From an uncultured Hormoscilla sp. (GTDB taxonomy: Bacteria > Cyanobacteriota > Cyanobacteriia > Cyanobacteriales > Desertifilaceae), in contig OZ001293.3 in the NCBI GenBank assembly GCA_963921275.4, forward strand, positions 768,001 to 832,000: a stretch of DNA of 64,000 nucleotides, read 5' to 3'. A program made the position numbers and the translations under genes. Positions 13,145 through 48,070 of this stretch are shown one piece after another. Below the pieces are notes generated by a model. The model had not been told where the DNA came from. It did not search any database and saw nothing but the letters and a program-made list of their open reading frames with translations. Within the stretch, counting starts at the first letter, position 1. Every line of letters begins with the position of its first letter.

Positions 13145-13224
13145 ATTAAGAAACCTTGTATCCCCTACTTACTAGGTTATATTGCGATTGCGACTTGGAG
13201 TCCTGATTGTCTCGGTCTAAATTT

Positions 13225-14241: not shown

Positions 14242-15282
14242 TACATTTTTGCCTACATGAGAGATAACGACTCCCACCGTCCCAGGGGGGATTTCCGTTA
14301 ACGGCACTTCTTCAACTTGAACGAACCAAGGGTTAAGACTCCAAGAACCTTCTTGCAGAAATTCTTCCTGCAAACCTCGGTAGCCCCCTGCATCAATGAA
14401 CTTTTGCCCATTTTGGAATGTGTAGTGTCCTTGGATGAACGGACCAGCTATCTCATTTTCTGGAAGAGGCATGCCGTAGAGAGTAGTTACGATCCCGATC
14501 ATATTTCTCCCTACCGTATATACCTTCATATCTTCAGGCTTTATCCCATATTCGGTAGCACGGGCCGCTGTTACAATCGTAAACAATGCCGTATTAATTT
14601 GGTATTCACCAGCCCTCAAAATAGCCAATTGTTCCCCACGCTGTCCTCCATTGGTAATGAATGCTCGTGCGTCTTGGAAGTTATTGCATTCAACAACCTT
14701 ACCAAGAATTCGTTCATCTGGTAGCGGGGCACCATCGTGGGCGATTACTAGAGCAATTTCTCTTGGCGGAACCTTGACCGTGGGTACTCTGCGAACCTTG
14801 AACAATGCAGTATTTATTTGGTAAGTTCCAGCTTTAAGGATAGCTAGTTGCTGACCTCTCTGCCCCCCATTCTTAATAAATGCTTCTGCATCCTGGAAGT
14901 CATTGCACTCAACAACTTTACCAAAGTTTTGACCCGGAGGTAGGGCAGCACCATTTTTCGCCTCGACTATGCCAACTTCACTTGCTTCAATCTGGATGAC
15001 GTTATTTTCTGTTATACTCTCAGGCGGAACCTTGACCGTGGGTACTCTGCGAACCTCGAACAATGCAGTATTTATTTGGTAAGTTCCAGCTTTAAGGATA
15101 GCTAGTTGCTGACCTCTCTGCCCCCCATTCTTAATAAATGCTTCTGCATCCTGGAAGTCATTGCACTCAACAACTTTACCAAAGTTTTGACCCGGAGGTA
15201 GGGCAGCACCATCTTTCGCCTCGACTATGCCAACTTCACTTGCTTCAATCCGGATGACGTTATTTTCTGTTATACTCTCAGG
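14236..15282 (-). pseudogene. C-terminal module of the conflict effector: flotillin/SPFH-associated beta repeats, interrupted by IS982
   Basis: Repeats VECNDFQDAEAFIKNGGQRGQQ..GTYQINTALF; frame continues past the IS to a stop at 13146; no own start codon. Confidence 0.7.
14765..15282. repeat. Near-identical in-frame 258-bp tandem duplication
   Basis: Units start at 14765 and 15023 (GGCGGAACCTTGACCG). Confidence 0.9.
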
Positions 15283-15603
15283 AGGTTTGAGGAAATTGGT
15301 TCAGTTGATTGAGTGTTTTGGTTCGGATCTTTTGAACCTGTCTGCTTAATCTGAAGCTTTGCCAGGATCTCAAAGGCGAAGGCACTGGCATGAGCGGAAG
15401 ATTTTTCCTGTCGATCCCGTTCCGATTCTAAAAAATCGTCATTTTTGCCCTCAATTAAGTCGGAAATACCTCTAATCACGATAGCCTTAATATTGGGGTA
15501 GGCAAAGGCGGCGCTCAGGAAACCAAAACCTTCCATCTCAACCGCGATCGCGTCGTTATAACTTTCTCTCAGAAATTTGAAAATCTTTGACTGTTTGGAG
15601 GCA
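15270..15603 (-). pseudogene. Nucleoside phosphorylase (PNP_UDP/MTAN-like) domain, 3' part
   Basis: AIAVEMEGFGF..VIRGISD motif; joins the 5' part in frame when the intron is removed. Confidence 0.85.
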
Positions 15604-16530
15604 GTGCGATTCGTTCCGGCATAAGCCAGTAGGTGAAAGTCGGGTCTGGCTCTATCAGCCAGATAACTCTGGTTATCATGGGGGTTAAATTCCCTTTCCC
15701 CAGGTACGGGGGTCGAGGGTACTACCGGTCGGAGGTGCTACGGAGCCACATCGCCGTGGTGCCTCCCGAGGACTTAAATGTAGGATAACTGGCAGCCTAA
15801 GCCGGTGACGCCGCTAGGAAAGATGCTAATGGTTAGAACAAGCGAACCTATGTAAACCTCGTTAACCAGAACCAGCGGAAGAAGGCTTATGCGCTTGCCC
15901 AAAAAGGGAAATGGTAGTTAGTATTAGCTCTTGCCTCTGGCTAATAACGTACTCAAAGAACTCTCGGGGTATAGTAGGAACCTAAAAGCATCGCGAAATG
16001 ATACCAGGGAACGGAGTAACCTCTCGTGAGCTGTCCCCATTTGGACAAGTTAGATGTAAAGCGCAAGCCACGAAGAGGAAGGATGTCCTAAGAAGCCAAC
16101 GCCCGGGGTAATGCTTGTGGATATGCAGACGTAGGACGGATATGGTAAGACACCCTTGGGAAAAGTAACCTTAATGTCACAGAACTAGGAAGAAATTCCA
16201 AAAGTACGAATCTTGGATTCAAATCTTAGCCAGGTAAAGTTCAGAGCCCCTACGAAAAGCGGAAAGCAGAATGGGGAAGATGTTAGTAAAGAGCGGCGAG
16301 TATGGTTTGCTGAACTATCCTCCGCGAACCTTCCGCAGCTCAGTACTTAAACGGTCCAATAGGATTGACCATAAGGGGTAAAATTTCAAAGGGTAAGGGA
16401 CAACGGGGGTAACCCCCAGTAATCCTACTGATGACAACAGCTTACCAACCAGTAGCCGTGTGCGGTTCCAGTCGCTCTTCAGGTTTCGCTCTTGGAGGGT
16501 TGGGGAGTGATTCCCAGCTCGACCCCGACC
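15604..16530 (+). mobile_element. ORF-less group II intron, antisense to the host gene
   Basis: 5' GTGCGATTCGTT; degenerate domain V/VI (AGTAGCCG...GGAGGGTTGGG..CCCAGCTCGACCCCGACC); removal restores GEKVIASKQ. Confidence 0.88.
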
Positions 16531-17297
16531 ATGACTTTTTCCCCGGCGGCAATGAGAGCCACAAATACATGGGGTTGCTGGCTCGAACTGCTGAGCCGTT
16601 GCAGCCATTCCTCTTTCCGTGCTTCTGCTTTCGCTCTTTGTACCAGTGCATAGCTTGACTGTCCCAAGTCAGGTCGGGTAAAGAACTGGTCTTCGTCTCC
16701 TACTTTTCCTGCCTCATAGCCGTAAACCTTCGTCCCTACGACCACATCACCGATTGTAACGTCTTTGATTCCTCCAGCAATACCCACAAACAAGAGGATG
16801 TGAGGCTGGAAGTAGGCGATCGCCCGTTCCGCTGCCGCTGCGGCCCTCGCATTACCAGCCTCAATCTCGGCAATCCCGACCTCCCATTCCTTGCCGTTGG
16901 CGATGAATTTTCCCCGTTCGTAAACGGTTCCCCCGGGATGAACATCCTCCCGTAGCTCTTTCAAATGGGTCCGGACTGCTAAATATTCGACGGGCAGGGC
17001 AGTCACTATTATGGCACGACGTTTCAATTTTTCTGCCGTTAGAGGTACTTCATCGGGAATTGATAAACTTAGTCCGTTAATATCTAACAGGCGATCGCGT
17101 CTTGGCAACTTGCTGAATTGTTCTGTCGCACCTTCGACATCTCCAATTGTAAAATTTGCCAGACCACGAGCATAAGTAATCAATAGTGGAGCGAATTCGC
17201 ATTCTTTCAAAGGTTCGGCAAAAGTTTCTACTAATGAGGATAGGCGAAATAACTCTTTCCAATTTTTCTCTTGCAACCTCAACCGGATCTTTTCCAA
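16531..17297 (-). pseudogene. Nucleoside phosphorylase domain, 5' part
   Basis: IVTALPVEY, LFVGIAGG, GDVVV and IAAGEKV motifs. Confidence 0.85.
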
Positions 17298-17359
17298 TAA
17301 CTTGCGACTAAGTTCCGTTGGTTGAGTATAAGCAAGAGCTGTCCAATATTGTGCTTCTG

Positions 17360-17746
17360 CTAAATTTTTTGTGTGACTATTTTCCCCAGCAAATTTTGCG
17401 TTACATAGTTAGTCAAAAAATCCGCTAGTTTCTCCAATTGCTTTTGACCAAAACGCTCGTCCTCTTTGAGTTCTGTTAACAGCAAGTTGCGGACAGCAAT
17501 ATCCATCTCGTAAAGCTCATACCCGACCTCACGACACAAACGAGAGAGAAGTACGCGAGCAACTGCCGTCCAAGGAGCTTGGGGTACGAAGCGAAGCCAA
17601 ATTTTGTAAAGCAGGTCAGGAGTGAGTACCAGCGGAAACGCCGCATGATAAGCTAAGTCCAGGTGTGTCCGGTCGAATTCTCCGGCAAATCCGACCACAC
17701 GCTCGATAGCAATTTCACAATCCGTTGTACTCGCTTCACTCATCAT
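17360..17746 (-). pseudogene. N-terminal domain of a vWA-MoxR system effector, frameshifted from the PNP domain
   Basis: LAYHAAFPLVLTPDLLY..YEMDIAVRNLLL; alternate frame reads AEAQYWTALAY into the 17297 ORF. Confidence 0.7.
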
Positions 17747-17784
17747 GCTTACACCGTCCACCGATCGGGACGCTCCCAATAAAC

Positions 17785-18128
17785 TTAGCGTCCTCGCAAA
17801 GTATTAATAACTGCATTCAATCCCTCGCGACTCATTTCAAACATTAGCACATTACGAGCAATATCGCCAGCAGTGGTATCCTGCCAACTATCCTCGGGCA
17901 TGGGATTGAGCCAAGCGTAATAACGGACTGACTCAGCGAGCTGATTGAGGAACTTTTGGGTGTACTCAACACGCTCTGGATTGTAGTTACCTCGTGCTGC
18001 ACCTGCATCGCTGACGATTAGGACCCCTGCTTTGTCAGCAATTGATGTCAAAACCTCTGTAACTGGCTGGGCTTTGAGGCGCGTCGGGTCACTATACAGA
18101 TATTTTTCAGGATAATTGTAGAAGTAAT
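17785..18128 (-). pseudogene. vWA domain protein, C-terminal remnant
   Basis: YYFYNYP, VLIVSDAGAARG and WLNPMP..W motifs; 5' part lost at the IS boundary. Confidence 0.8.
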
Positions 18129-19179
18129 AGACATCTCCAAAAATAAAACCCTTGTCAGCTCTGGGTTTTAAGCTCTACCTCCCATGCTCACATATGTTAC
18201 TCAAACGGCAGAATCAGGGTTTGATAGATTTCCTGTTAATAAAGAACTCCAAAGGTGGTACTGGTTAATCTCAAGTTTTTCAGAGCTATCAACAGATTCT
18301 AATACTTCTAAAATTCGCGCAACCAACCCAACTTTTGTCGAAATTACCGATTCATATTTATCAATATTTAACCGAAATCGCTCGCTGGCAACCCGGAAAA
18401 TTTTTACCAATGACCTGTTCAACGAAAACGGGAAGAAAAATCTCTATTTTCTTCTTTTTGTTTAGCTGTTAATTCCTGTTTTTTCGGTTTGAAAAGTTTT
18501 GAGGTTCTCCAATATAGGCTTTATCCCCTGCAAAAATTTGATCTGGATCGAAAACGACGCTCGCAAGATTTATATCGCTTGCTGGGCCTCTTTCTCCAGA
18601 TACAACATCGACAAGATCTGCACGCTTCGCTACCAGGTAAAACATTGATTTTTCAAAGTATTTCTTCTTACCTGAGTAAAACTTTTTCTGCTCTTCATAG
18701 TCTTTAGGTCTTGGTATGGCTTGCGCTATCGACTATCAACTCATATTCTGTGTTTGGATAAATATTCTTCATCTTCTCCATTTTTTTTGTTCAAGTAAAC
18801 GGCAAAGCGGAAAAGATATTGCCAATAATTAAAAATATCATTAGCTGTAGATTCACTGACGCCAAAAACTATACCTAATACTTGGAATGTTAATCCTTGA
18901 CGCAGATACATCAAAGTTAAAATTATTTGCTCTTCTACTAATAATTTAGCTTTCGCCCCCACGACGTATCAATCTAGTTTTGTGTTCTTCCACATTTTCT
19001 TTATGATTTTTATCCAACTTTTTAGCAATTGCAATAAGTTGTATTAAGTTTTTATAGCTGATACCGATGAGCCGTTTTGCTTCTTTAGGCTTGGCTTGCA
19101 AATATGTCCAGGTAATACTCGTCACAAAATTAAATTTTCAAATCTTATTATAGCATAAATTTCTATTTTGGAGATGTCT
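18129..19179 (-). mobile_element. Degenerate IS (IS5/ISL2-like, HTH plus DDE transposase remnant)
   Basis: TIR AGACATCTCCAAAA at both ends; LMYLRQGLTFQVLGIVFGVSESTA motif; many frameshifts. Confidence 0.75.
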
Positions 19180-19524
19180 GTTTAACTTTGGAACGTTGTT
19201 CCTCATCAAAACGTGCCAGTTGAGCATCGTGGAGACGACCGACTGCATCGTCAGTGTAGAGTCCATCTCTTGCCTTAGTTGTAGACTGGATGTACCAAGG
19301 TTCATAGGGTAAAACTCGTCAGCCACCGCTTGTGCCAAGCGAGTTTTACCGCATCCAGGATCCCCCTTCAACAACAATGGACGTTTCTGTAAAAAAATAG
19401 TGAGATTCACTGCCTCAATTAATGATTCCGAAGGCAAGTAAGGCTGAAGTCCATAACGTTTGTAATCCTCTGGGGAAGGTTGCTTTGTTCCCGTATAGAC
19501 GCGAGATATTACTGAATCAACCAT
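19180..19524 (-). pseudogene. MoxR-family AAA+ ATPase, N-terminal remnant
   Basis: RPLLLKGDPGCGKTRLA Walker A; frameshift, then truncated by the IS. Confidence 0.85.
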
Positions 19525-21488
19525 TTTGCTAATTTTCCTTCCCAACTAGTGCGTGTCATCAATTAAGCCATATTACAGCTGCCGCGAGGTAGATGGCACC
19601 CAAGAAATTGCGAGCCGTTTTATCGTAGCGTGTCGCCAGAGCCCTGTATTGCTTGAGTTTTTGGAATAGATTTTCAATTAGATGCCGCCACTTGTACATT
19701 TCTTCATCGTATTCTCTGTGTTCTGTGCGGTTACTTTTTGGAGGAATGACAGCCATCCAATCCGCCTCTTTCAGGCGCTCGAGCACACGTTGTTCCGCAT
19801 CATAGGCTTTATCTGCAAGCAGCGCGCCAATCTCACCGATTTTATCCAATAGCACGTCAGCGCCTTTCCCGTCGTGGGCTTGGCCAGGGGTAAGATGAAA
19901 TCCTGTGGGATTGCCTTGGGCAATCGCAAGTGGCATGAATCTTTGTCGATAGTCCCCCTTTACTACGGCCTATGGCTTGGGTTTCGCACGTATCTGAGGG
20001 TGTTTTTTTTTGCACCCGCACGCTCGTTGATGGGCACGCAGGATGGTGGCATCAATCGCGGCGTATTCGTTATCGGCGTCTGAGGCCAAGACATCGAATA
20101 CCTGCTTCCAAACTCCCTTTTCAGACCAACGGGTATGGCGGGTATGAACAACCCGAAAATCCCCAAAACACTCCGGTAAATCCCGCCAGGGAATGCCAGC
20201 ACGATATCGATATAACACGGCAGAACACGAATAATCTATTGTTCTTGGCTGTAGCGCCTGGGTCACCCTCTTTACCAGGTAAAAGGTGTTCGATCCGTTC
20301 CCACTGGTCGTCTCGCAAGCCATAGCGTCTCATATCATGCCCTCTTGATTGTTATTGCTGGATAAGGACTCCATACCGTATCCATCTACTTCTGTCAAGC
20401 AATTTGATTGATGACACACCCTAGAACCACAGTAGTAACAAATTCTTTGATAAACAAGTTCTGGAACGCCATTTTGATACTCTCCTAGCAAAGTATCGAC
20501 CAACAAACTTTCAGGTACGACTTCTGCTGCAACTGCCATTCTCAACCATTGAGAAATATGCTTTCGTGAAAATCTGGTTGTGGGAGACAAGTGCAGAGGA
20601 ACTCTGGGGTATTCCGACTGTTCGACTTGCGAAGCCAAAGGCATTCCAGATTTACATACTTTACCCTTATTATCAACTAAAAACATCACTAAGTAAGTAT
20701 CGCTTAAGTTTACGCTCTCTACAATAGGTTGCCAAAAATGTTCGATTACCTCGGGAATAAATCCTATACAAGTACGGTGAACTTCAGTAAAGATAAAAAT
20801 CAAATGCTGATTTGTCAAGCATTCAATAACTCTAGGGATAACTTGGTCTGGGGAAAAATCATTGTGGGAACCAGTCAAGTCCCTAGCAACCGCATTCCAT
20901 AGTTCAGAAATGTCAACCGGCCATTTTAATCTTGATTTGCCGACCATTCCGCAACTCTGGTAATCGAGAGAATCGAGTAACTAAAATTTCTTGTCCAAAC
21001 TTTTCTTCGCCATGAATTAAAAATGCGGCTGTTCTCTGGAGCTATTTTTGTAATCTTAGAGCGTTTGTCACCTCCTCTTGCTGTTCGTCAAAATCGATTT
21101 CAAGAATTGAATTAAAAAGTCGCCTTTCATCATATGAATATATTGGTGATTGACATTTTTGAGGCTGGTGCTGAAGCGCTTTAATTTTAGCATGCAGATC
21201 ATCCAAGCTCTTTCGACGATCGTCACCTTCAGGACAAGCTGTTGCCAAAGCCTTCACAAAAATAGGAAATATCCAGCCATATTTTTCGTGTTTATTTTCT
21301 ATAAAACTTGGTAAGTTTAATTCAAATAAACTTTCACAATCTGATCCTTGTTTGAGTTTGAAATTTACAAAATAGAGAGCTTCATGTCCTCGACAAAATG
21401 AACGGAGCCTCTGATAACTTTCAAATTGATCGCATTTCAAAATTACCTGTCTGCATAATGCATTCAGTTCATGTGGTAGTCCTTCCAC
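19509..21488 (-). pseudogene. EAD-like N-terminal domain fused to inactive STAND (iSTAND) NTPase, interrupted by IS5
   Basis: N-terminus resembles that of the 24615 ORF (CDQFE..LR.F.RGH); IDFDEQ, AAFLIHG and MFLVD motifs; stop at 21042; IS removal restores YYCGSSWEGKLAKWLIQ*. Confidence 0.7.
19546..20424 (-). mobile_element. IS5-family (IS427-like) element, frameshifted
   Basis: CTAG target at both ends, inverted GTGTCATCAA ends; [20 protein letters not shown] and ATRYDK motifs. Confidence 0.88.
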
Positions 21489-21490
21489 AG

Positions 21491-23440
21491 TTAAGATCCT
21501 GAAAGATTATACTGCTCCAGCAATTGCTGGGAAACCTCCAAAGCATCCTGGTAATCTCTAACTAAATTTCGAAGTTCTTGCTCGGTCCCCACGCTGAGAC
21601 AATCCTGCAAATCAGGGGGGAATTCTTCCATCTCAAAAGCTTCGTTCGTCCTTTGCGGTCCCAACTTGGCATCTACTTCAACTTGAGTCTTACCAATAAT
21701 TTCTTTTATTTCTGGTAATAAGAACCCCCGTTGCTTGCGAGCTAATACCCGAACCTGAGTCAAAGTATAACGCCAGTCAATTGCCAGCTTGCGACGCTCT
21801 TGCTCGTTAGCAAGTTCGGCATCCAGGATTTGTTCTTTAACAGCTTCCAAGAGTTCCCACCAGGGCTCATCGCGAGCAATTTCCGGTCCCCGTCGCTTTA
21901 ATGCTAATACTTGAATGATAGCATAAGAAAAATCCGCAAGCGAACTCCCACTAATATCAGTTAGCTGTCCGTTTGCGTCTATTTTCAGTGAAGTCGGCAA
22001 AATTTCATCCCTGTGGGAGCCAACTACAACCCGGTAGCCCGCTTTCAAATCTTGGAGGTTGAGATCCATCGTGGAGGAGAAAATCTCATCTTGAGAGCCT
22101 TCACGCAGTAGAAAACTCACCAATTGCCCGACAATTTTACTCACTCTCAGAGCCACAGCCCAATCAGGTCGAAGTAGCGATACTTGAGCGACTAAACCAG
22201 TTTGTTCGAGTTGAGTCATTGGATGGGGTCGAGCCGGGAATCGCTTCCCGACCCTCCCTTGAGGAACCGGACTTGCGATTTTCACCGCATCCGGCTACTG
22301 GGTACTAGGCCCTTTTCATAGGTAGACTTAATAGGAATTACTTCCGTTAGCCCTTGCCGCCTGTCTTTTCTTCCCTTTCCTGGTTTAGCGAGTGGTTGTT
22401 CTGATAACCGTTAGTATCACCATTTTCAAGTCAGTTTTACCAGTTATCCATACCTTATCCTCCACTTGCGTTTCGGATTAGTTCCGTGGCTTTTTAGGAT
22501 TACTCATTCCAGCAGCTTCCTAGTATCACCGACCCACGTCAGCGCTGGCTACCCAGCATCATCTACATTACTGTAGATGTTATCCCAGGAATTACCCCGG
22601 GCATTCGCTTCTTGGGTCATCCCTCCCCCCGTGGCTTGCGCTTAACATCTAACTTGTCCTGATGGACAGCACACGAGAGGTTACTTCGTTCCCTAACAAC
22701 ATTTCGCGATACCTTTAGGTCCACACTATACCCCGGGAGCTATTTGAGTACTATATTAGCCAGAGTCTAAAACTAATACTAGCTACCATTTCCTTTTTAG
22801 GCCAGCGCATATAGCCTTATTTCGCTGGTTCCTTATAACGAGGCTTGCACATGTTTGCCTGCTCTAACCTTGGATATCTTTCCTAGCGGCGTCACCGGCT
22901 TAGGCTGCCAGTTATCCTACATTTGAGTCCTCGCTTAGCACCACGATGATGTCGCTTCGTAGCACCGAGGACCGGTGTCACCCCCGTACCTGGGGGGAGG
23001 GGAATTTAACCCCATGCGGTCAGAGTTCCCGGCTAATGAAACCGGGCTAGCGTTCCGTGTTTGACCACGTTAGGCTAGAACGAATCGCACAAATTCTGTA
23101 AAGGTTTATCTTGCCATACTATATATTTCAAGTTGACACGCAACCAGTCAGTAGAGCGGGCAGGCAACTAGTCAGTTAAATTGATACTGAGACCCAAGCG
23201 ACAAGCCTTATTTTTTTGCACGGAGGAGATCTTGTGGAGGCTTTGGGTCGAGTAATTTGGCTGAAAAGAGCTTTCGACTGAAGAACTAAAAGTGATAAAT
23301 CCAGGTTCAGTCAGCAAACCAGCTCTGTAGAATGCTTGGGCATCGTGCAGCCTAACTAGAAAGTAGCTGTTGTTTAAATATAGGTTGCACGGGGGGTTAG
23401 GTTGCTCTGGATAGTAAATAGAACTGACACTACTTAGCAT
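21491..23440 (-). pseudogene. Hypothetical protein in the conflict operon, split by a sense-oriented group II intron, with a premature stop
   Basis: Exons join in frame (KPLQNL-MTQLEQ); in-frame TAG at 23168. Confidence 0.7.
22221..23090 (-). mobile_element. ORF-less group II intron (lineage B, copy 1)
   Basis: GTGCG 5' end at 23090; intact DV AGTAGCCGGATGCGGTGAAAATCGCAAGTCCGGTTC; near-identical to 56934-57804 and 57805-58675. Confidence 0.92.
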
Positions 23441-23450
23441 AGTTTACTCC

Positions 23451-24615
23451 TTATGAATTTTGTGTTTCCATAATTTCACGATATAGCTCTTTCTGATTTT
23501 GTCTCAAGTCAGACAATATGGCACTGATTAGGGTAGCTTCCCGCAACTGTTCATCATCATTTTCACCATTATGCAACCCTACCACCTGCAATTATTCACT
23601 TTTAACACGGGAGCGCCGGAAGTTCCTTTGTCACTAGGAGCATTATAGAGAATGCGGTTTCGATCCGAGGCCAACTTGACAAAATATCCTTCAGAGCGCT
23701 GCTGTGGCTGCCCTTTTGGATGTTGAATCACTAGGAGCTTGGTTTGAACCGTGACAGGTTCGTCCTCCTCTAACTTCAAAAAGCCCCACTGCTTAAGCGG
23801 ACGATTCTTCCGATCCTGCAAGCGCAGTAGAGCATAGTTAGATCGGGATTATAATATTCAAGTGCATCTATTTTATATTCAACACCTTGACCGGGCAGTG
23901 CATTTTGAAAAATTAACAAGCCATTCGCAATTTGCTCTTGAAGATCGAGTTCGCTAATCGGATATTCCCGCCATTCTCTTGCTTCAATGACGTGCCAGCA
24001 AGTCAAAGCTAATTCAGGAGTTACCAACCATCCCGTGCCTCTAGGAACTTGCTTCCTGTCTCCATCGATAATTCTTGGCACGCTCACGCGAGCAACCGAA
24101 CGAGCGCAGGTTAGCAACTTTTCGTCTACCGCCAGGAAAAACATCGACTCGCCTTGGGGATTAGCTTCTCGCCCAGAAATTACAGCGGGTAACCCTTCGG
24201 GAAGAGTGTTGTCTGTTTTATTTGGTACTATGGAAAGTCTCGGTTTGCTATTAGGATTAACTGCTTGTCCCAAAGGTGCAGCAGATGAATCACTTGACAG
24301 AGCAGTGTCAAGTTCCTGGGCTAGATCCGCCAGGGTTCGATGACGACCATCTGCCGGATCTATTTGCTTGGCTAATAAGTCAACTAAAATAACTAGGGCA
24401 TTTTTCTTAGTGTCGTCACGAAATTTATCATTTAAGAAGCCGATCGCGTCTTCCACAAGTTCACTCGGACTGCCGGCTTGCCATCGATGTCGCCAAGGCC
24501 CAAGTAGAGCATGTCCCCTAAAGAAATTTCTTAATGTTTTAGCGTTTTCAAATTGGTCACAATCTAATAGGGCGTCATACAATCGAGTATAGAGTTCAGA
24601 CGTAATTCCAGCCAT
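23451..24615 (-). pseudogene. EAD-like domain fused to a trypsin-like serine protease
   Basis: GTGWLV, LTCWHV and GTSGAPV motifs; 1-nt deletion at the expected catalytic Asp (L-D-YALLRL, about 23838) and a second frameshift near the end. Confidence 0.85.
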
Positions 24616-24719
24616 ATCCTTTTACGAAGTCATTCTGATAATATAGCTTTTTCAACCAAACTGGATCGTACTTTTGCAGTTCCCCTCGATCGGTTTTTTA
24701 AGCTGTCGCAGTATGACAG

Positions 24720-25614
24720 GTCAGACGGCTCCGGGATCCTCAGACAGCAGCGCCTCTATATCTGCCAGCAGAGCTTCTAGTCTTGTACGCTTATCTAGGT
24801 CGTCCCAGACTTTGATCTGCTTAACTCTTTTGGAGATACTCTCCATCCGAGATTGCAGTTATTCTCGGTCTGCCGGGAGCTGTTGGGCTTTGATTTGCTC
24901 TCGAATTTCGCGCAGGGACAGAGATTTTCGATCGCCTCCTCCAGGAGTGCCTGTCGTGCTGACTCTACCTTGAGTTTAGCAATAGCTTTAGCCTTAGTAT
25001 ACTCGATGCGACCCTGGCGGAGAGCTTCTAGGATTTCCGGGGGAAGTTTCAGCAGGGGAAGCCTGGTGCGGATAAAGGTTTGCCAGTTCATCTTGCCCAG
25101 ACTGGCAAAGACTGCTTCCACCTTCTCACGATCGGGATTAGGGGAAACGTTTCCCCTAGCATCTGGGGCTGAAGCCGTAGAGTTGTCCGCTGGAGTATCG
25201 GTGCCTTGAGACCTGGATTCCTTTTCCAGGGAGTTCTTCATCCGATACAGCAGCAACTTGACCCGATCGACAGAGCAGTTGAGCTCGATCGCCAGCAGTT
25301 GCAGAATCCCCTCAGTCTCCTCTACTGAGTTCAAATCTTGCCGCTGCAAGTTCTCCACCGTACTGCATCGCTTCCGCATCAGTCATCTCCCTCAACATCA
25401 CTGGCACTTCGGTCAGTCCCACTGCCCGAGCAGCTTTATACCGGCGCTCCCCCGCCACAACCTCATACTTATCCCCCACAGGTCGCACCAGCAAGGGCTG
25501 CAAAATGCCGTTTGACTTGATACTGGCGATCAATTGCTCCATGGCTTCTTCATCAAAATAGCGCCGGGGTTGGCGAGCAGGAGGCAAAAGCTGGTCGAGC
25601 TCGATTGACTGCAC
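24720..25614 (-). pseudogene. parB: ParB/Spo0J partition protein, frameshifted
   Basis: QPRRYFD, GILQPLLVRP, VAGERRY and ENLQRQDLN motifs split over several frames. Confidence 0.85.
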
Positions 25615-26827
25615 GGCGTTGGATGGCTTGGAGCCATTTGACTTCTTCGCTCAGACCTTGGGGTTTGGGGGATGGACGCTGAGACTGCTGCTTTGAATCC
25701 ATTCGTAAATTTGTCAAACCTCCTACTATTCTAATGCTGTCCTTTTCTAGCAGGGGCGTATGTTTAACAAAAAATTACACGGTTGAGACTGATAAATACT
25801 CACCTCCCTCCACAACAATGCACGCCGGTCATAGTTAATGCCAAACTTAAGGGAAAGCTTTTCCGAATTTAGACAGAATTAATCACTTTAATGTTATGGA
25901 TTTATTTTACCCTAGTGTAAACCCGACCCAGAGCCTCTAGTATAATATCATTACCAGGCGGGTGTGCTCAAAACCCGTTGATCGTTCATGGGCCCTCCAG
26001 TCGTCGGATCCCCCCTGCGATGTCTCGCGAAGGCCGCGCCACATGCGCTGCGCGCACCGGGCTACTAGTCAGGAGCGATCGCACTACCCAAGAGACATCG
26101 CACCCCCCTTAAAAGATACTGTGGGCGAATTACCAGATCATGCGCTCAGAGCTCCCTGCTCCGCCTCGAAATGTTAAGAAATATGTGAGTAAGGCATAGA
26201 ATTGGCGTGGGGGGGTTTGGGGGGGATCCCTATGCAACAACTGCGCCTTCCACACCCCTTTTAACCCCAAGAGCGTCTAAACCCAGCCGCAGTAGGGCTA
26301 AAGGAGGGCGAGAGTCCCAATTGATCGCCAGCATAGTCTTACATTTTGGATGTGAGAGTAACCTCGGAGGTCAATACTTCGTAGGTTTTGGATATAGGTT
26401 GTCCGGAGCGAGGGGGGGGACAACCGCTCACAACTTATGCTCAATTGAGTTAACCCCCCCGTTCGCGCAGGCGTAGCCGTGGCGAAGCAGCAGCTAGCAA
26501 TCTCCCGGCTCGGGTGCTCCCGGCTCCCTGCTATCCCTTGAGGTATTGCCTCGGAGGTTACTTTTTTTTCAGTGCCAGCAAGCAGCACTAATAGGGCCAT
26601 TACGGACAAAGAAAAAAGAGCGTCCCAAAGTAGCCATCAACCTTGAAACCTATCGCCGGTCATAAAGCGAGCGGATTCTCAGAACAGACTGGCACCGAAG
26701 CTCAGGTCATCAATCACCGGCTGTACCCAAAAAAGATTGCCTCATCCAAAAATCAACCCCAAAAAAATCCCCAAGCCGCGTAACTCCCCCCAACTCCACC
26801 ACCCCATTTCAAGTCCCCACTAAGACC

Positions 26828-26858
26828 CCAGTAAGTTACCAGTAAGTTACCAGTAAGT
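26828..26858. repeat. 11-bp tandem repeat CCAGTAAGTTA (about 2.8 copies)
   Basis: Seen directly. Confidence 0.8.
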
Positions 26859-26973
26859 CCTAAAATCCCGGATCCTGTACTAGATGCAACCGGAAAATAA
26901 ATCACATACTGAGATAGATAATTTTTCGACAAGCACCGGTCATCTCAACCCTGAAAAAACACATCCCCGGGTG

Positions 26974-27801
26974 ATTAGGGGTCTCCCTGGGAATAGCTTC
27001 GGAACCCTCCCGTTCGGAACCGGACTTGTGATTTTCACCACATCCGGCTACTGGGTAGTAGGGCCTTGTCATTGGTAGAATTACTAGGGATTACTCCCGT
27101 TGTTCCTTGTCTCATGCTATTTCACTCATCTACTGGTTTCTAGCCAGCCATCCATTCCTCATCATTATTGCTAATGAAGGGCTCATAACGTTTTTAGAGC
27201 TACTTTTACCCGAGACATCCTGCTATCACCGACCGACGTCTGCATATCCTAAGCATTCCCCGGCGTCTTCCGCATGCTCTTGTCCTGAAGGACTCGGCAT
27301 GCGGAAGACACCGCCTAGGCATTAGCTTCTTAGGCCATCTTTCCCACCTGCGGCATACGCTTCACATCTGACTGGTCCTTTCGGACAGCTCGCAAGGGGT
27401 TACTTCGTTCCCTGGTCTCCGGAGCGCGATACCTTTAGGTTCCTACTCTACCCCGGTAGCTTTTCGAGTACGATGTTAGTTACGAGCGACAACTAACACT
27501 AGCTACGTTGACTTTTGTCTCCGGTGTATACAGCCTTATTTCACCGGTTCTACATAACGAGGCTTACATAAGTTCGTTTATTCTAACCTTGGGTATCTAA
27601 CAAGCGCGGTGTCACCAGCTATGGCTGCCAGCTATCCTACATTTAAGTCCTCGCTGAGCACCAATGGTGATGTTACTCCACAGCACCTCACGCGGTTACC
27701 CCCGTACTTGGGGAGAGGGAATTTAACCCCATGAATACCAGAGTTCCTAGTTTCCTAGGCTAGCGTTCCGTATTACTACGTTAGGCTAGAACGAATCGCA
27801 A
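26974..27801 (-). mobile_element. ORF-less group II intron (lineage C)
   Basis: 5' TTGCGATTCGTT; DV AGTAGCCGGATGTGGTGAAAATCACAAGTCCGGTTC; 3' end GACCCCTAAT. Confidence 0.85.
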
Positions 27802-28172
27802 CGCTCACTTGTAGTTGATAGCCGGGTGCATCTTAGATGCATGTAAAATAGCCCGCCGGTAGGCTCACGCTCACCCGACCACGCAGGCGGTCGGGTGAGC
27901 GTGGTCGGGTGAGCGTATACGAAGTGCGCGTAGCGCTAGCCGAAGGGAGCCGAAGGGAGCCTACCGGCGGGCAATGTTGCGGAGTAGCCGGACCATGCAC
28001 GGGTGAGGGCTGTGTTTCCCCTTTTGTGCGTAAGGCGCGAGGTTTCTCCTATGCATGTGCGATTACGATGTCCCCCCAGAGGGGGGTGCGGTTAGCGCGA
28101 GGTATCTCCACCGGTTGTGCGATTAGCGCTCCCAGGAGATACCTCCCCCCAGAGGGGGGACATCGAGCTCCC

Positions 28173-29911
28173 CGGGTAGTCTTTAAGTTGCAAAAGCGAA
28201 TTTACAGAGCGGCAATGGAAGGCGTAATAAGCGAACGGTTCGCAGACTCCAAAGATTACTGGTAAAATCCCGGGCAGCCAAAAGTCTAGCGGTACGACAG
28301 GTTACACAAGACAACCAGGGAAGGAAAACTGCCGGTGTGGATGGTGTTAAAGCACTGACCCCAAAGCAGCGCTTAGAACTGGTAGGACAGATTGAAATCT
28401 CAAACAAGGCCAAGCCTACACGTCGTGTATGGATACCCAAGCCAGGGAGAGAGGAAAAACGTCCTTTAGGAATACCAACGATGTACGACCGTGCGACACA
28501 AGGACTCCTCAAGACTGCGCTAGAACCCGAATGGGAAGCGTACATGGAAGGGAACTCCTACGGGTTCAGACCGGGAAGGGGATGCCACGATGCAATCGAG
28601 GCAATATACAGTAGCATCAAACAAAAACCCAAGTGGGTACTGGATGCAGACATTGCAAAATGCTTCGATAAGATAAACCACAAGGCGCTACTAGAAAAAC
28701 TGAATACAATATCACCAATCCGTAAGCAAATACGGGCATGGTTAAAAGCCGGGGTGATGGACAAAGGGGAATGGCATGCAACTGAAGCGGGAACGCCCCA
28801 AGGGGGTGTCATATCACCGCTACTAGCCAACATAGCCTTACATGGGTTAGAGGAGGCAGTAATGAAGCTCGCCAAGCCAACAAAGAACGAAAGAAAAAAG
28901 CTGACAGTAGTCAGATATGCAGATGACTTTGTAGTCATGCACGAGAACAGAGTGATAGTGGAAAAAGCGCAGATAGTGGTCGCAGAGTGGCTAAAAGGAA
29001 TCGGGTTAGAACTGAAAGCCGAAAAAACAAAAATAGCTCATACGCTAAAGGGGGAAAACCCGGGGTTTGACTTTCTGGGTTTCAACATCAGGCAATATGA
29101 GGTGAGTAAATACAGGACCGGCAAGTCAACACACGGAACACCCCTAGGATTCAAAACCCTAATAAAACCCAGTAATAAGTCCATAGGGAAGCATAAAGAA
29201 CGGTTATCAGAAATGGTGGCCAGCCATAAAGCAGCACCACAAACAGCCTTGATAAGTGGGGTAAACCCGATAATACGGGGATGGTCAAACTACTACAGGG
29301 CGGTGGTGAGTAAGGAAACTTACAGCTACATGGACCACTACCTATGGACCATTCTCTGGCAGTGGGCAAAAAGGAGACATCCCAATAAATCCAGTCATTG
29401 GATAGCTCGTAAGTACTGGTCCCTAAGTGAGGACGGTAAATGGCGATTCCGATGCAAGATAGGAAAAGATGAGATAACGCTGCGCAAACACTCCGAAACT
29501 GAGATAATCAGGCACGTAAAAGTGAAAGGTACAGCCAGCCCATATGACGGGAACCTTACATATTGGAGCGCAAGACTAGGTAAAAGCCCCGAGTTGAGTA
29601 AGAGGGTAGCAACGCTACTCAAGAGACAAAAGGGGAAATGCCAACACTGTGGACTAACGTTTATGAACTGTGACAAATGGGAAGTTGACCATATCAAGCC
29701 CCTCTCATTAGTCTCATTAGGGGGTAAGGACCGGTACGACAACCTACAGTTACTACACAAGCATTGCCACGATATAAAGACTGCCAACGATGGTAGCAAA
29801 CGTAGCCGTACCTATGACAAGGGTGGCGTTGCTGAGGAGCCGGATGATGCGAAAGTATCAAGTCCGGTTCTGAAGACTAGCAGGAGTGGTGACACTCTTG
29901 CTTAGTTTAAT
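28173..29911 (+). mobile_element. 5'-truncated RT-encoding group II intron (chloroplast-like class)
   Basis: DV GAGCCGGATGATGCGAAAGTATCAAGTCCGGTTC; end GCTTAGTTTAAT; 5' domains missing relative to the 55942 copy. Confidence 0.88.
28337..29905 (+). CDS. ltrA: Group II intron reverse transcriptase/maturase with HNH endonuclease (N-terminus frameshifted)
   Basis: RPLGIP, GTPQGG, YADD, IRGWSNYY and HNH (EVDHI..LHKHCH) motifs. Confidence 0.9.
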   Translation: MDGVKALTPKQRLELVGQIEISNKAKPTRRVWIPKPGREEKRPLGIPTMYDRATQGLLKTALEPEWEAYMEGNSYGFRPGRGCHDAIEAIYSSIKQKPKWVLDADIAKCFDKINHKALLEKLNTISPIRKQIRAWLKAGVMDKGEWHATEAGTPQGGVISPLLANIALHGLEEAVMKLAKPTKNERKKLTVVRYADDFVVMHENRVIVEKAQIVVAEWLKGIGLELKAEKTKIAHTLKGENPGFDFLGFNIRQYEVSKYRTGKSTHGTPLGFKTLIKPSNKSIGKHKERLSEMVASHKAAPQTALISGVNPIIRGWSNYYRAVVSKETYSYMDHYLWTILWQWAKRRHPNKSSHWIARKYWSLSEDGKWRFRCKIGKDEITLRKHSETEIIRHVKVKGTASPYDGNLTYWSARLGKSPELSKRVATLLKRQKGKCQHCGLTFMNCDKWEVDHIKPLSLVSLGGKDRYDNLQLLHKHCHDIKTANDGSKRSRTYDKGGVAEEPDDAKVSSPVLKTSRSGDTLA

Positions 29912-31890
29912 TCCGACCCACCTAATGAAAGTGGTTTAATATGGTCAACTTCCCACTTGTCACTATTTGTGAACGTTAGTCCTAATTCTCGGCAGTTACC
30001 TTTCTGCATCTTCATGCGCTTCGCAACTCGTGTTCCCACATCTGGGCTCTTACCGAGTCTTGTACTCCAGTAAACGAGCTCACCGTTATATGGGCTTACA
30101 TCACCTTTTACTTTGACATGTCTTACTATCTCTACACTACTGTGCTTCAACAGCTCAACTTCCTTACTTTCATCTTTCGATCTGAACAGCCATTGACCAT
30201 CCTTGTCTATTGACCAGTCATTCTTGGCCATCCATTCTCCAGACTTATTCGGGTGTCGTCTTTTCGCCCATCTCCACAAAACCTTCCACAAGTAATCGTC
30301 CAGATCACTATACGTTTCCTTGCTCACTCCTGTTCTGAAGTAATTAGCCCATCCACGTATCAGAGGATTCAGCTTCATTATCAGCTCCTCCTGAGACTTT
30401 CTGTCATCTATCTCTTTCTGATGACTTTCCTTGTGCTAAAGAACGGATTTCTCACTCAGCTTGATTAGTGTTTTGAATCCTAGGATCTTCCCTTTACACC
30501 TTCCAGACTTGTTCTTGACTACCTGATATTGTCTCACATTGAATCCCAGGAAATCAAATCCCGCGTCTTCTGCGTGTAACCTATGAGCAATCCTAGTCTT
30601 CTCAGGCTTAAGTTCAAGTCCTATTCCTCTCAGCCATTCAGCTATAACCTTCTGCGCCTTCTCCACCACTTCCCGACTTTTATGTATGACTACAAAGTCA
30701 TGTATCTGACCACAGTCAACTCTGTCTTTTTTCGTTCAGGCACCAGAGTCATAACTTTTTCCTCTAGTCCATGCAGAGCAACGTTTGCCAGCAATGGTGA
30801 AATCACTCCTCCTTGTGGTGTACCTTCATTCGTTGCACACCAATTCCTCCCATCTATCACACCAGCAGTCAGCCAAGCGCGTATTTGTCTACGAAAGATA
30901 GATGAAGTATTCACTTTTGTCAACAGCGCTTCATGGCCTATCTTATCGAAGCATTTAGCTATGTCAGCATCAAGAACCCATTTAGCTTTCTTGTTGATCG
31001 CTGAGCATATTGCTTCGATTGCATCATGACATCCTCGACCTGACCTAAATCCATAGGAATTACCTTCTTTCCTTAGCTTCCCATTCTGGTTCTAATGCCT
31101 GTTTCAGTAATCCCTGTAGTGCGCGGTCGTACATCACCGGTATTCCCAATGGACGTAACTCTTTCCTACCTGGTTTAGGTATCCAAACCCTTCGAGTCGG
31201 CTTAACCTTCTTCCAAGTCTTAAGTTGTCCTACCAGTTCGAGACGCTCGTTAGGTTTCAGCTCTTTTATACCGTCTACCCCAGCCGTCTTCTTTCCCTGG
31301 TTATCTTGTGTTACTCGTCGTACCGCTAGACAGTTGGCAGACCAAGACTTCACTAATAGCCTCTGGAGTTTGCGAACTTTCCGCTTATTACCTTCCTGAG
31401 TCGCTCTGTAAATCCGCTTTTGCAAAAGACTAACCGCTCCAATTTTGGCCACGGTAGATCTTTCCATTCATACATCGGCTTTCCCGTGTTCATAACGTTT
31501 TCACTGCTACAAGTAGCTTCACATTTGACATCATTGTGAGGGCGTCAGCGTATCCATACCTATTACAGGTAGGCTTTTGCTTCTCCACGAAATCCTTCCC
31601 GGCTATGACCTGGCATATGTAACCAGATGTTGCGTCTTTGGTGACTACCAGATGTGATCGACCTCTAGATCTGGAGTACATAACCGGTTTACTTCGTTCC
31701 TACAGATGATTGATCATGACCTTAGATGGATTCTATGTACCGGGTTTATTGTCGGTGCTTGTTAGTCGGCCTACGATCCACTAACGACCTCTATCCTTTC
31801 CCTTTTGGGCCAGTGTTTCAGCCTTATTACACTGGTTGTGTGTGACGACACTGCAAATCTTCGCTTCATGCTCACCATAGTCACTTGCTC
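29912..31890 (-). mobile_element. Degenerate RT-encoding group II intron, truncated at both ends
   Basis: RT fragments at 31060-31467, 30690-30923, 30436-30669 and 29902-30378; 31500-31890 matches domain I of the 55942 intron. Confidence 0.85.
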
Positions 31891-32828
31891 GAATGTATCC
31901 ATGAGTCCTATAACTTGCTGCGAACCTTGCCCCTAGATGACTTCGATGTGGTGTTTATCTTTCACTGCTTCCATCAGTTTCCCTCGGAAGTCCGACGGAT
32001 CCTGCTAGACCGGGGCGCGCGCCAGATCAAGATTGTGGGCTACACCATGGGCAGTCACTGGGACCCCACGGATACCTTCCGCGAGATTTTCTATCCGGGT
32101 ATGCGGGTGAGTGACCTGGCCAACTTGCTTTGTCTCGACCTGGTATTGATGGTTTCACATTATTTCCGAGAGGTGTTGCTCCATCATGTGGGTGCCTTCA
32201 GTACGACAGCAGCAGCGGAACTCGATCGCCGCATCGCCGTCACGGGTTTGCCCATTAACAACGAATTGATGGACCGCGGCTGCACTAGCAGCAAAGCAGA
32301 CAAGGTGCAGATTGTCTTCAACCATTCTCCTACACCAGGGAAGCCCCCGAAATTTTCTTCCGCATCATGGAGCAGATATTACCTCACCACGACGTGAGGT
32401 TAGTTGTTACCCGTCAGTTTGACGCTGATAGTCCTGGTCAGGAGCAATTGCAGCAACTGCAAGCACGCTATGGCGATCAGGTAATCATCGGGAATACCAT
32501 GTCTTTAGCAGATTACTATGAAACCCTGTGGAAATCCCACATCCAGGTCTCGACAGCCGAGCACGAATCCTTCGGCATATCGACCTTAGAGGCAATGTAC
32601 ACTCGCAATGCCTGTATCCTGCCCAGTCGCCATAGTTACCCGGAAATCACCGACAATACCAACCTCTATACATCCGAACAAGAACGGCTAGAGATGCTGA
32701 CGCACTACATTCAGGACCAACTCTCATGCAGTCAAATGGCCGAAGTCATGCATCAGCAGAGCTGGCGGTACGTTCCCGAGCAGGTCGTAGAACGCATTTC
32801 CCAGGCGATCCACGACCTACTCTCCTAA
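31891..32828 (+). pseudogene. Glycosyltransferase (GT4-like) remnant
   Basis: HESFGISTLEAM motif; frameshift near 32350; 5' end missing. Confidence 0.75.
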
Positions 32829-32913
32829 CCCCCAAAAGTATGAAACCCAGACCCGCAAGCTGTGTCCCAAGTGCTCTTAGCGCTTCCAGGAGACACTTCA
32901 CCGGGGGACACAG

Positions 32914-32994
32914 GGTAGTGGGTAACAAGTAGTGATTTTAGCGCCTGAAACCCTGAGCAGACCGTAGTCAAATCACTACATCTTGACCACTACC
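32914..32994. mobile_element. 81-bp MITE with IS1-like GGTAGTG ends
   Basis: Inverted ends GGTAGTGG/CCACTACC; 8-bp TSD GGACACAG. Confidence 0.8.
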
Positions 32995-33020
32995 GGACAC
33001 AGAAGGTGCTTGCGGTTTTT

Positions 33021-33138
33021 GGATCTCCTGGGTTTTGGGGCAAAAATGTATTGTAATATACATTTTTTGCGATCTAAAAGGCTATAATAGTTAATTTTGA
33101 GTGATTGCTTTACTTATCACTCGAAACCCAGGAGACCC
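33021..33138. mobile_element. 118-bp MITE
   Basis: TIR GG(A/G)TCTCCTGGGTTT; flanks GGTTTTT/GATTTTT. Confidence 0.7.
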
Positions 33139-33194
33139 GATTTTTGGGGCAGACTTGACAGTAAAGCTAAAATTTGTGTTAAATTATAGATTAT

Positions 33195-33355
33195 GGAGAG
33201 TGTGAAGTTCTCACAGAATACGACCTCGTCTAAAAGCTGAAACCCTTGCTGGGGGTAGCTTACAGCCAGTATTAGCCCGCTTATTGCCCATGATCGGTCG
33301 ATCGGACCAAAACCCGCTTATGACAAGCCGTTATCCAAAGAACTTCGCACTGTCC
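33195..33355. mobile_element. 161-bp MITE
   Basis: TIR GGAGAGTGTGAAGTTCT / GGACAGTGCGAAGTTCT; no clean TSD. Confidence 0.6.
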
Positions 33356-33363
33356 AGATAGAT

Positions 33364-34274
33364 TGAAAGTCTGGTTTGGTTTCATTTGCTAGACAACTCT
33401 GGTTATCATGGGGGTTAAATTCCCTCTCCCCAGGTGTGGGGGGTCGAGAATACTACCGGTCCTTAGTGCTGCGGAGTCACATCGCCGTGGTGCTCCGCTA
33501 GGACTTAAATGTAGGGTAGCTGGCAGCCTAAGCTGGCAACACCGCGCTTGTTAGATGTTCATGGTTAGAACAAGCGAACCTGTGTAAGCCTCGTCACCTA
33601 TAACCAGCGGAATAAGGCTGATACGCTGGCCCAAAAGGGAAATGGTAGTTAGTGTTGGTAATCTGTACTTACTAGCATCGCACTCGAAGAACTCCCGGGG
33701 TATAGCAGGAACCTAAAAGCATCGAGAAATGATACCAGGGAACGAAGTAACCTCTTGTGTGCAGTTCGGCTCAACGGGGCCGAACCAGTTAGATATACGT
33801 CCGCGTAGCGTGCGCGGAGCGCATAGCGCAAGCCACGAGGGGAAGGATGTCCTAAGAAGCAAATGCCCGGGGTAATGCCCGTGGATAAGCTGACGTCGGA
33901 CGGATATGGTAAGAAGCCTTTGGTGAAAGTAGCCCTAATATGTCGCAAAACTTAGGAGAAATCCAAAAGTATGAATATGGACTAGAGTCTCAGCCGGGTA
34001 AAGTTCAGAGCCCCGATAAATCAGGAATGGGGAAATGTTAGTAAAGAGCGGTTAGACCGGTTTGCTGAACTACCCTCCGCGAACCTTCCGGAGCTGAAAT
34101 CATTAACGGTCCAATAGGATTGACCATAAGGGGTAAAATTACAGAGGGTAAGGGGAAACGGGGTGACCTAATTATTGATGATGATATGCCTAAGGACAAG
34201 CCCCAGCGGTGAAAGTCGCAAGTCCGGTTTCGCTCTTGGAGGGTTGGGAAGTGATTCCCAGCTCGACCCCGACC
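33364..34274 (+). mobile_element. ORF-less group II intron (lineage D), 5' end lost and DV damaged
   Basis: Colinear with 15604-16530; same 3' end CCCAGCTCGACCCCGACC. Confidence 0.82.
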
Positions 34275-34573
34275 TTGACATATTGGCAAGACGCTAAGTA
34301 GTCAAACTAGGAACTACTTAGGTCCAGGGCCCAGACGAGTACCGGTCTATCCTGTGTGATGGCCAAGCCCAAGCGGCGATAAGAAGCTGCGCATCGCTTA
34401 GCGTGCGCGTAGCGCATAGCTACCTGACTTGCATGAGTAGTTGCTCATACCACAAGTCAATCTTGGTCTGTTTTGTCTAGCTCGCGCTCATGAGCAGCGT
34501 AGTAGTTAGGGCCACGGCGTTGGCGACATAAATGAATCGAGAAAAAGCTATTGGTGTAAGGAGATTAACGTTG

Positions 34574-47897: not shown

Positions 47898-48070
47898 AAG
47901 TCCAATTGCAGAAATCGCATTTTGCCCAGGCGATCGCCTCCCTCTGGTTATGAGGCTCGCCGGTAGTTACCATAGGGTTCCCATTGCTCACCTGACAAAC
48001 AGTAGACTCGGAAGGTGGCTATTTTACAGGAACCGAAAGCTGACAAAGCTTAAACGCTGCTAGAGGTGAC

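Follow-up and report, generated by a model that had tools for sequence, protein, structure and literature searches.

The window analysed here, a stretch of 64,000 nt within the 7.03-Mb assembly of an uncultured Hormoscilla sp. (contig OZ001293.3, positions 768,001 to 832,000), contains four group II introns that lack an open reading frame (ORF) and are termed A, B, C and D. A preliminary description of this DNA had proposed that a variable loop in each intron is exon-binding site 1 (EBS1), which pairs with intron-binding site 1 (IBS1) of the 5′ exon, and that the introns are naturally retargeted ribozymes spread in trans. Here we report that they belong to a family of more than 300 long copies in which the guides covary with their targets, and that mobilisation in trans by resident reverse transcriptases (RTs) is probably the means by which the family has spread.

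Introns of the window

Repeat finding and alignment within the window showed all four elements to be present and homologous end to end, in keeping with the related lineages and shared scaffold first described. Intron A (15604-16530, plus strand; 927 nt) starts with GTGCG and belongs to lineage A (cluster 2, 17 genome copies). Its EBS1, TGCCTC (15932-15937), is complementary at 6/6 positions to the IBS1 GAGGCA (15598-15603), and its second guide, EBS2, reads ACCAG (15865-15869). Intron B (22221-23090, minus strand; 870 nt) also starts with GTGCG and represents lineage B (cluster 0, 140 genome copies), with EBS1 AGACTC at plus-strand positions 22763-22768 and EBS2 TAAGG at 22831-22835. This copy is sense-oriented and lies approximately 25 codons into, or ahead of, an ORF at 21491-22285 on the minus strand. 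Intron C (26977-27801, minus strand; 825 nt; lineage C, singleton cluster 31) has the 5′ end TTGCG, in which G1 is changed to T. The C insertion site is spanned by no long frame, and the EBS1 CGCTCG (27483-27488) pairs at 6/6 positions, one of them G-U, with the IBS1 TGAGCG (27802-27807). Intron D (33364-34274, plus strand; lineage D, cluster 8) carries the EBS1 loop CTGTAC (33663-33668) and is 5′-truncated without a GTGCG start; contigs of other family members diverge from it, with loose ends, at 33367. D is probably dead. The coordinates originally assigned to A and B hold, whereas the boundaries of C had to be refined to those given here and D proved to be truncated.

When the pairings were rechecked, those of A and C stood, and the B loop AGACTC was found to pair at 5/6 positions with GAGTCC and also at 5/6, including one G-U, with GAATTT. 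The GAGTCC hexamer (58676-58681) is the IBS1 of a further B-lineage copy, at 57805-58675 on the minus strand, which adjoins the 5′ exon. A second B-lineage copy follows at 56934-57804 on the same strand, its 5′ flank being the 3′ end of its neighbour, such that the two form a head-to-tail pair. We infer that the copy at 57805-58675 is the younger and that at 56934-57804 the older member, the second insertion presumably having taken place at the still-intact IBS2-IBS1 of the occupied site.

A genome-wide family without coding capacity

A BLAST search of the genome revealed 559 merged loci related to the four lineages, of which 316 are at least 780 nt long. Single-linkage clustering at an identity of at least 92% resolved the long copies into 41 clusters, with sizes of 140 (B), 72, 17 (A), 14, 9, 8, 8, 4, 4 and 3 together with six pairs and 25 singletons. 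Group II introns have the conserved 5′ end GUGYG, and an accepted 5′ end lies at the aligned column in 303 of the 316 (GTGCG, with TTGCG or GCGCC in single copies); the remaining 13 are nine copies of cluster 4, copy D and three others. Of the nine cluster 4 copies four were inspected, and in these the intron begins some 100 nt upstream of the locus delimited by BLAST. The 303 elements collapse to 272 distinct sites, and some copies possess long identical flanks, indicating that these sit inside other repeats that have themselves been duplicated. No obvious strand bias along the chromosome was apparent by octant.

Counting of domain V (DV) by pattern gave 354 domains of the ORF-less type and 49 of the autonomous type. 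An Rfam search of the genome with the model for domains V and VI (DV/DVI) returned 867 first-look candidates, and at least 148 of the 150 that were scored exceeded the cut-off. With the RT-bearing introns included, intron-derived DNA amounts to 531,766 bp in 551 intervals, or 7.56% of the assembly.

When the 41 cluster representatives were compared by blastx with 20 intron-encoded proteins (IEPs), neither an ORF nor an ORF remnant was detected, the best in-element match having an E value of 0.04. The elements are ORF-less, as first described, but the ORF-end remnant (ATGA.AAGG before DV) that had been proposed for B and C was not substantiated. An RT/maturase encoded in domain IV (DIV), a trait of mobile group II introns, is absent from these elements, which are non-autonomous. 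The 46 B copies among the matches listed are 99.3-99.8% identical to window B, and an identical 125-nt 3′ end is found in 95 B copies; judged by such identity, some ORF-less lineages are very young.

Guides and targets vary together

Removal of duplicates with a common cluster and 20-nt flank left 250 distinct insertions, which were grouped into 41 lineages (cluster by loop variant). Covariation among the 41 lineage consensuses was sought between each of the 870 intron columns and the 35 flank positions from -25 to +10, with 300 permutations of the flanks among lineages as reference. This unbiased scan recovered a diagonal of EBS1/IBS1 cells from 323/-1 to 328/-6, paired in 34-37 of the 41 lineages with Z scores of 5.5-7.6. 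A further antiparallel diagonal, corresponding to EBS2/IBS2, extended from 257/-10 to 260/-13 (paired in 36-37 lineages; Z 6.0-6.6) and was joined by cell 256/-9 (28 lineages; Z 4.3). The six EBS1/IBS1 and five EBS2/IBS2 cells account for 11 of the 13 strongest in the scan. Cell 254/-14, which is among the eleven strongest, lies off the EBS2 diagonal, and the isolated cell 714/-10 (13 of 41) is likely to be noise.

Complementarity across additional copies had been set beforehand as a test of the EBS1 assignment. Allowing G-U pairs, EBS1 and IBS1 pair at 6/6 positions in 106 of the 250 insertions and at 5/6 in 111, such that 217 pair at five or six positions; 22 pair at 4/6, eight at 3/6 and three at 2/6. 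The mean pairing was 5.24, compared with 2.66 in a control in which guides were set against the flanks of lineages with other EBS1 sequences. In accordance with the proposed retargeting, 37 distinct EBS1 and 33 distinct EBS2 sequences occur among the 41 lineages. The EBS1 loop (intron 323-328) is the most variable of the 864 6-nt windows of the intron, and EBS2 (intron 256-260), which lies 63 nt upstream, ranks third among non-overlapping windows.

In the target, only positions -15 to -9, -6 to -1 and +1 carry information, with none further out (115 B sites and 58 cluster 1 sites); position +1 is A in 83% of the B and 91% of the cluster 1 sites. This limitation to guide positions and +1 fits recognition mainly by RNA. 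From two genomes of the same genus 16 loci were fetched, and 13 gave a 5′ end with enough downstream intron. Seven of these were scored by script, with five pairing at 6/6, one at 5/6 and one at 4/6; six more pair at 5-6/6 by inspection. Three further loop sequences among these elements match their own flanks (TCTAGA, CACTCC/CACCCC and TTTATC).

Cluster 1, with 72 copies the second-largest ORF-less lineage, has the EBS1 TGCACT.

Ribozyme structure

The EBS1 loop is closed by a hairpin stem (312-320/330-338) that is paired in 32-40 of the 41 lineages, the eight inner pairs in 37-40, with compensatory changes at several pairs. By its position (the 63-nt spacing from EBS2) and its covariation, although not by assignment from a curated model, the hairpin can be placed tentatively in subdomain 'ID3'. 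Identification of the loop as EBS1 was thus borne out by the scan of the 41 lineages, the 13 same-genus elements, the covarying hairpin and the upstream EBS2. RNAalifold analysis of the 41 consensuses recovered the EBS1 hairpin together with DV/DVI in an otherwise untidy global fold, which was used for those parts only.

Covariance models for group II introns had been proposed earlier as a check. The DV/DVI model RF00029 scored above its cut-off in window B (22223-22299, minus strand), in the two head-to-tail B copies (56936-57012 and 57807-57883, minus strand) and in two RT-bearing introns (29835-29911 and 60212-60288, plus strand). Intron C was near the threshold (26987-27052, minus strand; 39.3 bits with a cut-off of 40), and no DV/DVI was found in A or D in the search of the window. 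The D1-D4 models matched nothing in the whole window at E values up to 1; with B alone, the only match was RF01999 at a sub-threshold 20.9 bits (cut-off 36), covering intron positions 78-196 and so stopping short of EBS1.

In group II introns, DV is a 34-nt helix with an AGC triad, a 2-nt bulge and a GNRA loop, and DVI, which follows it, has a bulged A close to the 3′ end. The ORF-less introns possess such a bulged A, 9 nt from the 3′ end. DV of D has two C-C mismatches, while clusters 2 (lineage A), 5 and 9 have in common a DV with two adjacent mismatches in the lower helix, exemplified in the window by 16440-16480 in A. The predicted minimum free energy of this variant is approximately -7 kcal/mol, as against approximately -18 kcal/mol. 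The three clusters carry different EBS1 sequences and have diverged considerably in the rest of the intron. Even so, cluster 2 has multiplied to 17 copies; these occupy 13 different sites, at most of which the IBS match is good. Either the variant DV is functional, or it spread between copies by recombination after insertion.

Sites and consequences of insertion

An exact intron-free junction of 30 nt exists elsewhere in the genome for 53 of the 303 elements. In 52 of these elements the end coincides with the aligned 3′ end and no base is duplicated or lost, and the remaining one shows a 5-nt offset that arises from local misalignment. The exact junctions fix the 3′ ends as ...CCCCATCC in B and ...CCCCGACC in A.

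The landing sites were assessed by excising each copy in silico and asking for a stop-free frame that extends at least 60 codons to either side of the junction. No such frame surrounds 199 of the 272 distinct sites, whereas insertion is sense at 45, antisense at 24 and both at four; the corresponding numbers for 1500 random positions were 865, 292, 300 and 43. Antisense sites within frames are therefore under-represented (8.8% versus 20% at random positions). Antisense landing, as had been proposed, does occur: intron A interrupts a minus-strand gene of the PNP_UDP_1 (phosphorylase) family in antisense. The joined flanks restore a frame of 403 codons, of which the upstream piece covers profile positions 2-139 and the downstream piece positions 168-230. 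Two tandem 258-nt units, 99% identical, occupy 14765-15280 within an ORF (14236-15063, minus strand) located just downstream, on the minus strand, of this split gene.

Fifty of the 303 elements reside inside other group II introns: RT-bearing introns host 20 in sense and 16 in antisense orientation, and other ORF-less copies host 14. The 16 antisense insertions in RT-bearing introns are without exception B copies, with 10 near position 2000-2020 and four near 1000-1010 of the host intron. Six insertions of B into B were found, at position ~770. Cluster 1 has recurrent sense sites in domain I (DI) of RT-bearing introns, 11 at ~240-250 and two at position 20.

Resident reverse transcriptases

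An intact RT elsewhere in the genome had been anticipated, and tblastn of the genome identified 100 RT loci, 20 of which retain a stop-free frame of at least 567 aa. Among the 22 best loci, 17 have a GTGCGA 5′ end 560-720 nt upstream, defining introns of approximately 2.4 kb that end in GGCTTAGTTTAAT. One ORF of 592 aa scores 356 bits against TIGR04416 (cut-off 300) and matches PDB entry 6me0 chain C with an E value of 4.5e-113 over nearly its full length; we take this entry to be the TeI4h ribonucleoprotein of Thermosynechococcus elongatus. The relatives of the RT are found in Hormoscilla metagenome-assembled genomes, whose organisms are presumably sponge-associated and live at ambient temperature.

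A 3′ end is preserved at 75 RT loci. By pattern, 46 of these are of the autonomous type, and inspection of the remaining 29 showed 27 to possess an autonomous-type DVI. A segment of DIV is common to one RT-bearing sub-lineage and to D and B, with scores of 49 and 34, where shuffled sequences reached at most 29 and 24. This segment is the sole hint of a common protein-binding site.

Proposed mobilisation in trans and its alternatives

We hold with considerable confidence that the elements are ORF-less IIB-like introns, retargeted through their guides and mobilised in trans by the RTs of the same genome. According to this explanation, EBS2 (256-260) would pair with exon positions -13 to -9 and EBS1 (323-328) with -6 to -1, with +1 usually A. 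The intron RNA, presumably catalytically active, would then reverse-splice exactly after -1, and an RT would copy the RNA into DNA. Because the ORF-less elements encode no protein, the RT/maturase must be supplied in trans, most likely by the approximately 20 loci with a long open frame. Mutation of the guides would have given rise to dozens of sub-lineages with new targets, spread to several hundred sites. Since a copy takes its orientation from the DNA strand with which the guides pair, some copies are antisense to host or RT genes; splicing, expected to take place in vivo, could not restore the message there.

Several observations weigh against this explanation. Across DI-DIII, ORF-less clusters are 68-87% and RT-bearing introns 82-87% identical within their own group, whereas identity between the two groups is only 59-68%; the DV/DVI and 3′ ends also differ, and the ORF-less RNAs form, by these comparisons, a separate clade. 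Consequently, their recognition by the resident RT proteins is not self-evident. None of the 75 RT loci keeping a 3′ end has only an ORF-less-type DV/DVI downstream, and just one autonomous sub-lineage has the short DIV segment in common with D and B. Several window copies are clearly defective (C by G1 to T, D by truncation), and lineage A has reached 17 copies with a weakened DV that escapes Rfam detection. EBS3, a trait of IIB introns that pairs with +1, did not stand out in any column (best Z 2.6); it was not located because +1 is A in 33 of the 41 lineages, which leaves too little variation. Finally, the contigs of four runs over 15000-34500 contained no joint skipping a window intron, although these contigs broke at repeat borders and are therefore uninformative on presence/absence polymorphism. 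Mobilisation in trans by the resident RT proteins is the most economical inference.

The lineages might instead be fossils of past bursts, once mobile and now inert, with the EBS/IBS pairing a frozen record of old insertions. The altered start of C, the truncation and mismatched DV of D and the weakened DV of lineage A would all agree with this, as would the 80 of the 100 RT loci that lack a frame of at least 567 aa. We nonetheless regard it as unlikely, given the 140 B copies with at least 92% identity (among them the 46 nearly identical copies and the 95 with an identical 3′ end), the presence of B copies within B copies and as head-to-tail pairs, and the approximately 20 RT loci with a long open frame. 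Additionally, the family occurs in all four same-genus genomes searched, with 7, 130, 152 and 197 first-look candidates compared with 463 here, and in none of 21 genomes of other genera. The same-genus genomes carry other sub-lineages, and these differences in sub-lineages and numbers indicate turnover since the species split.

Equally improbable, in our estimation, is that the helper is something other than the resident IEPs: a maturase or RT that is free-standing, an ORF-bearing sibling now lost or not sampled, or self reverse-splicing combined with an unrelated RT. The strong divergence of the two clades in DI-DIII, DV/DVI and 3′ ends speaks for such a helper, as does the lack of any RT locus with only an ORF-less-type 3′ end. 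Opposed to this are the 100 RT loci, at which 73 of 73 typable tails were of the autonomous type (tblastn; free-standing maturases were not searched for), the DIV segment common to one autonomous sub-lineage and D and B, and the precedent of T. elongatus, where some of the IEPs act on several degenerate introns lacking an ORF and mobilise them (Mohr 2010, PMC2882425).

Propagation as DNA, whether by segmental duplication, by recombination or through a DNA transposase, with the complementarity of loop and flank being incidental, would account for the long identical flanks of some copies and the collapse of 303 elements to 272 sites, but it is scarcely credible and was rejected as the mode of spread, since two separate guide sites covary and pair far above controls among distinct flanks, insertion is exact without target duplication or terminal inverted repeats, and ribozyme domains are present.

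Comparison with other expanded introns

The closest described system is that of the TeI3/TeI4 introns of T. elongatus, and the mechanism proposed here is the one described there; what is new here is the scale, the probably mesophilic host and an unusually deep split between coding and non-coding introns, the ORF-less clade being only 59-68% identical to the RT-bearing introns. The T. elongatus genome has 28 introns, some of them forming twintrons; 17 lack an ORF, and the introns fall into six families by their EBS sequences and occupy ~1.3% of the genome (Mohr, Ghanem and Lambowitz 2010, PMC2882425). The likeness extends to many related IIB-type introns among which the ORF-less outnumber the ORF-bearing, families set by diverged EBS guides with matching IBS (EBS1, EBS2 and EBS3 in that case), insertion into other introns and mobile DNA, target recognition mainly by RNA pairing, and some copies with a defective DV (PMC2882425). 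The homology of an IEP encoded here, over nearly its full length, with 6me0 chain C is a further point of likeness.

The differences are also marked. The present genome has 316 long ORF-less loci and ~100 RT loci, EBS1 occurs in 37 variants, introns take up 7.56% of the assembly, and many insertions are antisense in RT genes (16 of 303). Identity among all the T. elongatus introns is 85-100%, and in those without an ORF the remnants of it, left by a single deletion, can still be seen (PMC2882425). The ORF-less clade described here has its own DV/DVI and 3′ end and no detectable ORF remnant; the marks of recent deletion derivatives, namely shared breakpoints, ORF remnants and at least 85% identity to a resident ORF-bearing intron, were not found. 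T. elongatus is a thermophile, and heat has been proposed as an aid to intron proliferation (PMC2882425). Expanded CL-type group II introns, including ORF-less ones, have also been described for Arthrospira platensis and other filamentous cyanobacteria, and in a 2022 survey the highest count for any prokaryotic genome was the 101 introns of A. platensis (Miura et al. 2022, PMC8919778). Against this maximum stand the 867 first-look DV/DVI candidates and the 354 and 49 DVs counted by pattern here, a comparison that is approximate because the counting methods differ. A search of the accessible literature found nothing linking Hormoscilla or a sponge cyanobacterial symbiont with group II introns, the symbiont part being judged by titles and the starts of abstracts.

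In the relation of short to long interspersed nuclear elements (SINEs and LINEs), a short non-coding family far outnumbers distantly related coding elements whose protein it presumably needs. By analogy, the ORF-less elements might be an old, self-sustaining, SINE-like ribozyme clade without a coding sibling, living off the RTs of a distinct intron clade and often destroying those RT genes by antisense insertion, with lineages of weakened DV still proliferating. On the same tentative reading, which we consider possible but somewhat less likely than not to be correct in all its parts, the genome would have the highest bacterial group II intron load that we found reported, reached through free mutation of the two short guides, in a host that is probably not a thermophile. 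Unlike a SINE, the non-autonomous element would here be a ribozyme that finds its target by base pairing and whose insertions are in principle removable by splicing.

If this reading is true, the clade would constitute a natural bacterial instance of a splicing and mobility apparatus acting in trans and shared by hundreds of degenerate introns, a stage postulated on the path to spliceosomal introns. Models of spliceosomal intron origin face the standing question of how group II introns could reach high copy numbers within a single genome; the one well-studied bacterial case, for which high temperature was invoked, has 28 copies, and the present one, offered by this genome and its genus, is more than ten times larger. 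It displays a clear split between a coding clade and a far more numerous non-coding clade, which would be parasitic upon it. The cost to the host is documented by the 24 of 272 distinct sites that are antisense inside long frames, the phosphorylase-family gene of the window included. Additionally, the 37 EBS1 and 33 EBS2 specificities with their real targets make up a natural catalogue that is useful for testing targeting rules.

RT-bearing introns and other repeats of the window

Three RT-bearing introns lie in the window. The first, of the autonomous type and 5′-truncated, occupies 28173-29911 on the plus strand; it ends in GCTTAGTTTAAT, with DV/DVI at 29835-29911, and contains an ORF at 28337-29905 with RVT_1, GIIM and HNH domains. 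This ORF reads through DV and stops within DVI, such that its C-terminal 20-odd codons overlap the catalytic helix, and an open frame through DV is likewise present in full-length genomic copies of the RT intron. Just upstream, at 27990-28170, short repeats with intron-like GTGCGATTA starts lie beside palindromic CCCCCCAGAGGGGGG motifs. The second (29918-31852, minus strand) is a degenerate remnant that is 69% identical to a full-length copy, lacks both ends and retains ORF fragments with GIIM and RVT_N. The third is full-length (55942-60288, plus strand) and is split at about its position 993 by the two head-to-tail B copies in antisense orientation. It contains an extra ~212 nt at 59877-60088, between intron positions ~2199 and 2191.

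The small assembly contig C3 (31,420 bp) has a G+C content of 17.6%, compared with 47.4% for the chromosome, and may be foreign to this organism; it could, for instance, be an organelle, or the plasmid or phage of some other organism. Within the window, an inverted repeat pair of 1019 nt (13223-14241 and 46881-47899; 99% complementary) is probably an insertion sequence present twice. An ORF at 51283-52578 contains a pair of direct repeats of 300 nt (51305-52063), which are separated by 459 nt and share 99% identity. At 49229-49523, three units of ~98 nt with a conserved core (GTGACAAGGTTTGCGCTCGCACGGGTGATGGTGGGC...) resemble a short dispersed or tandem repeat.

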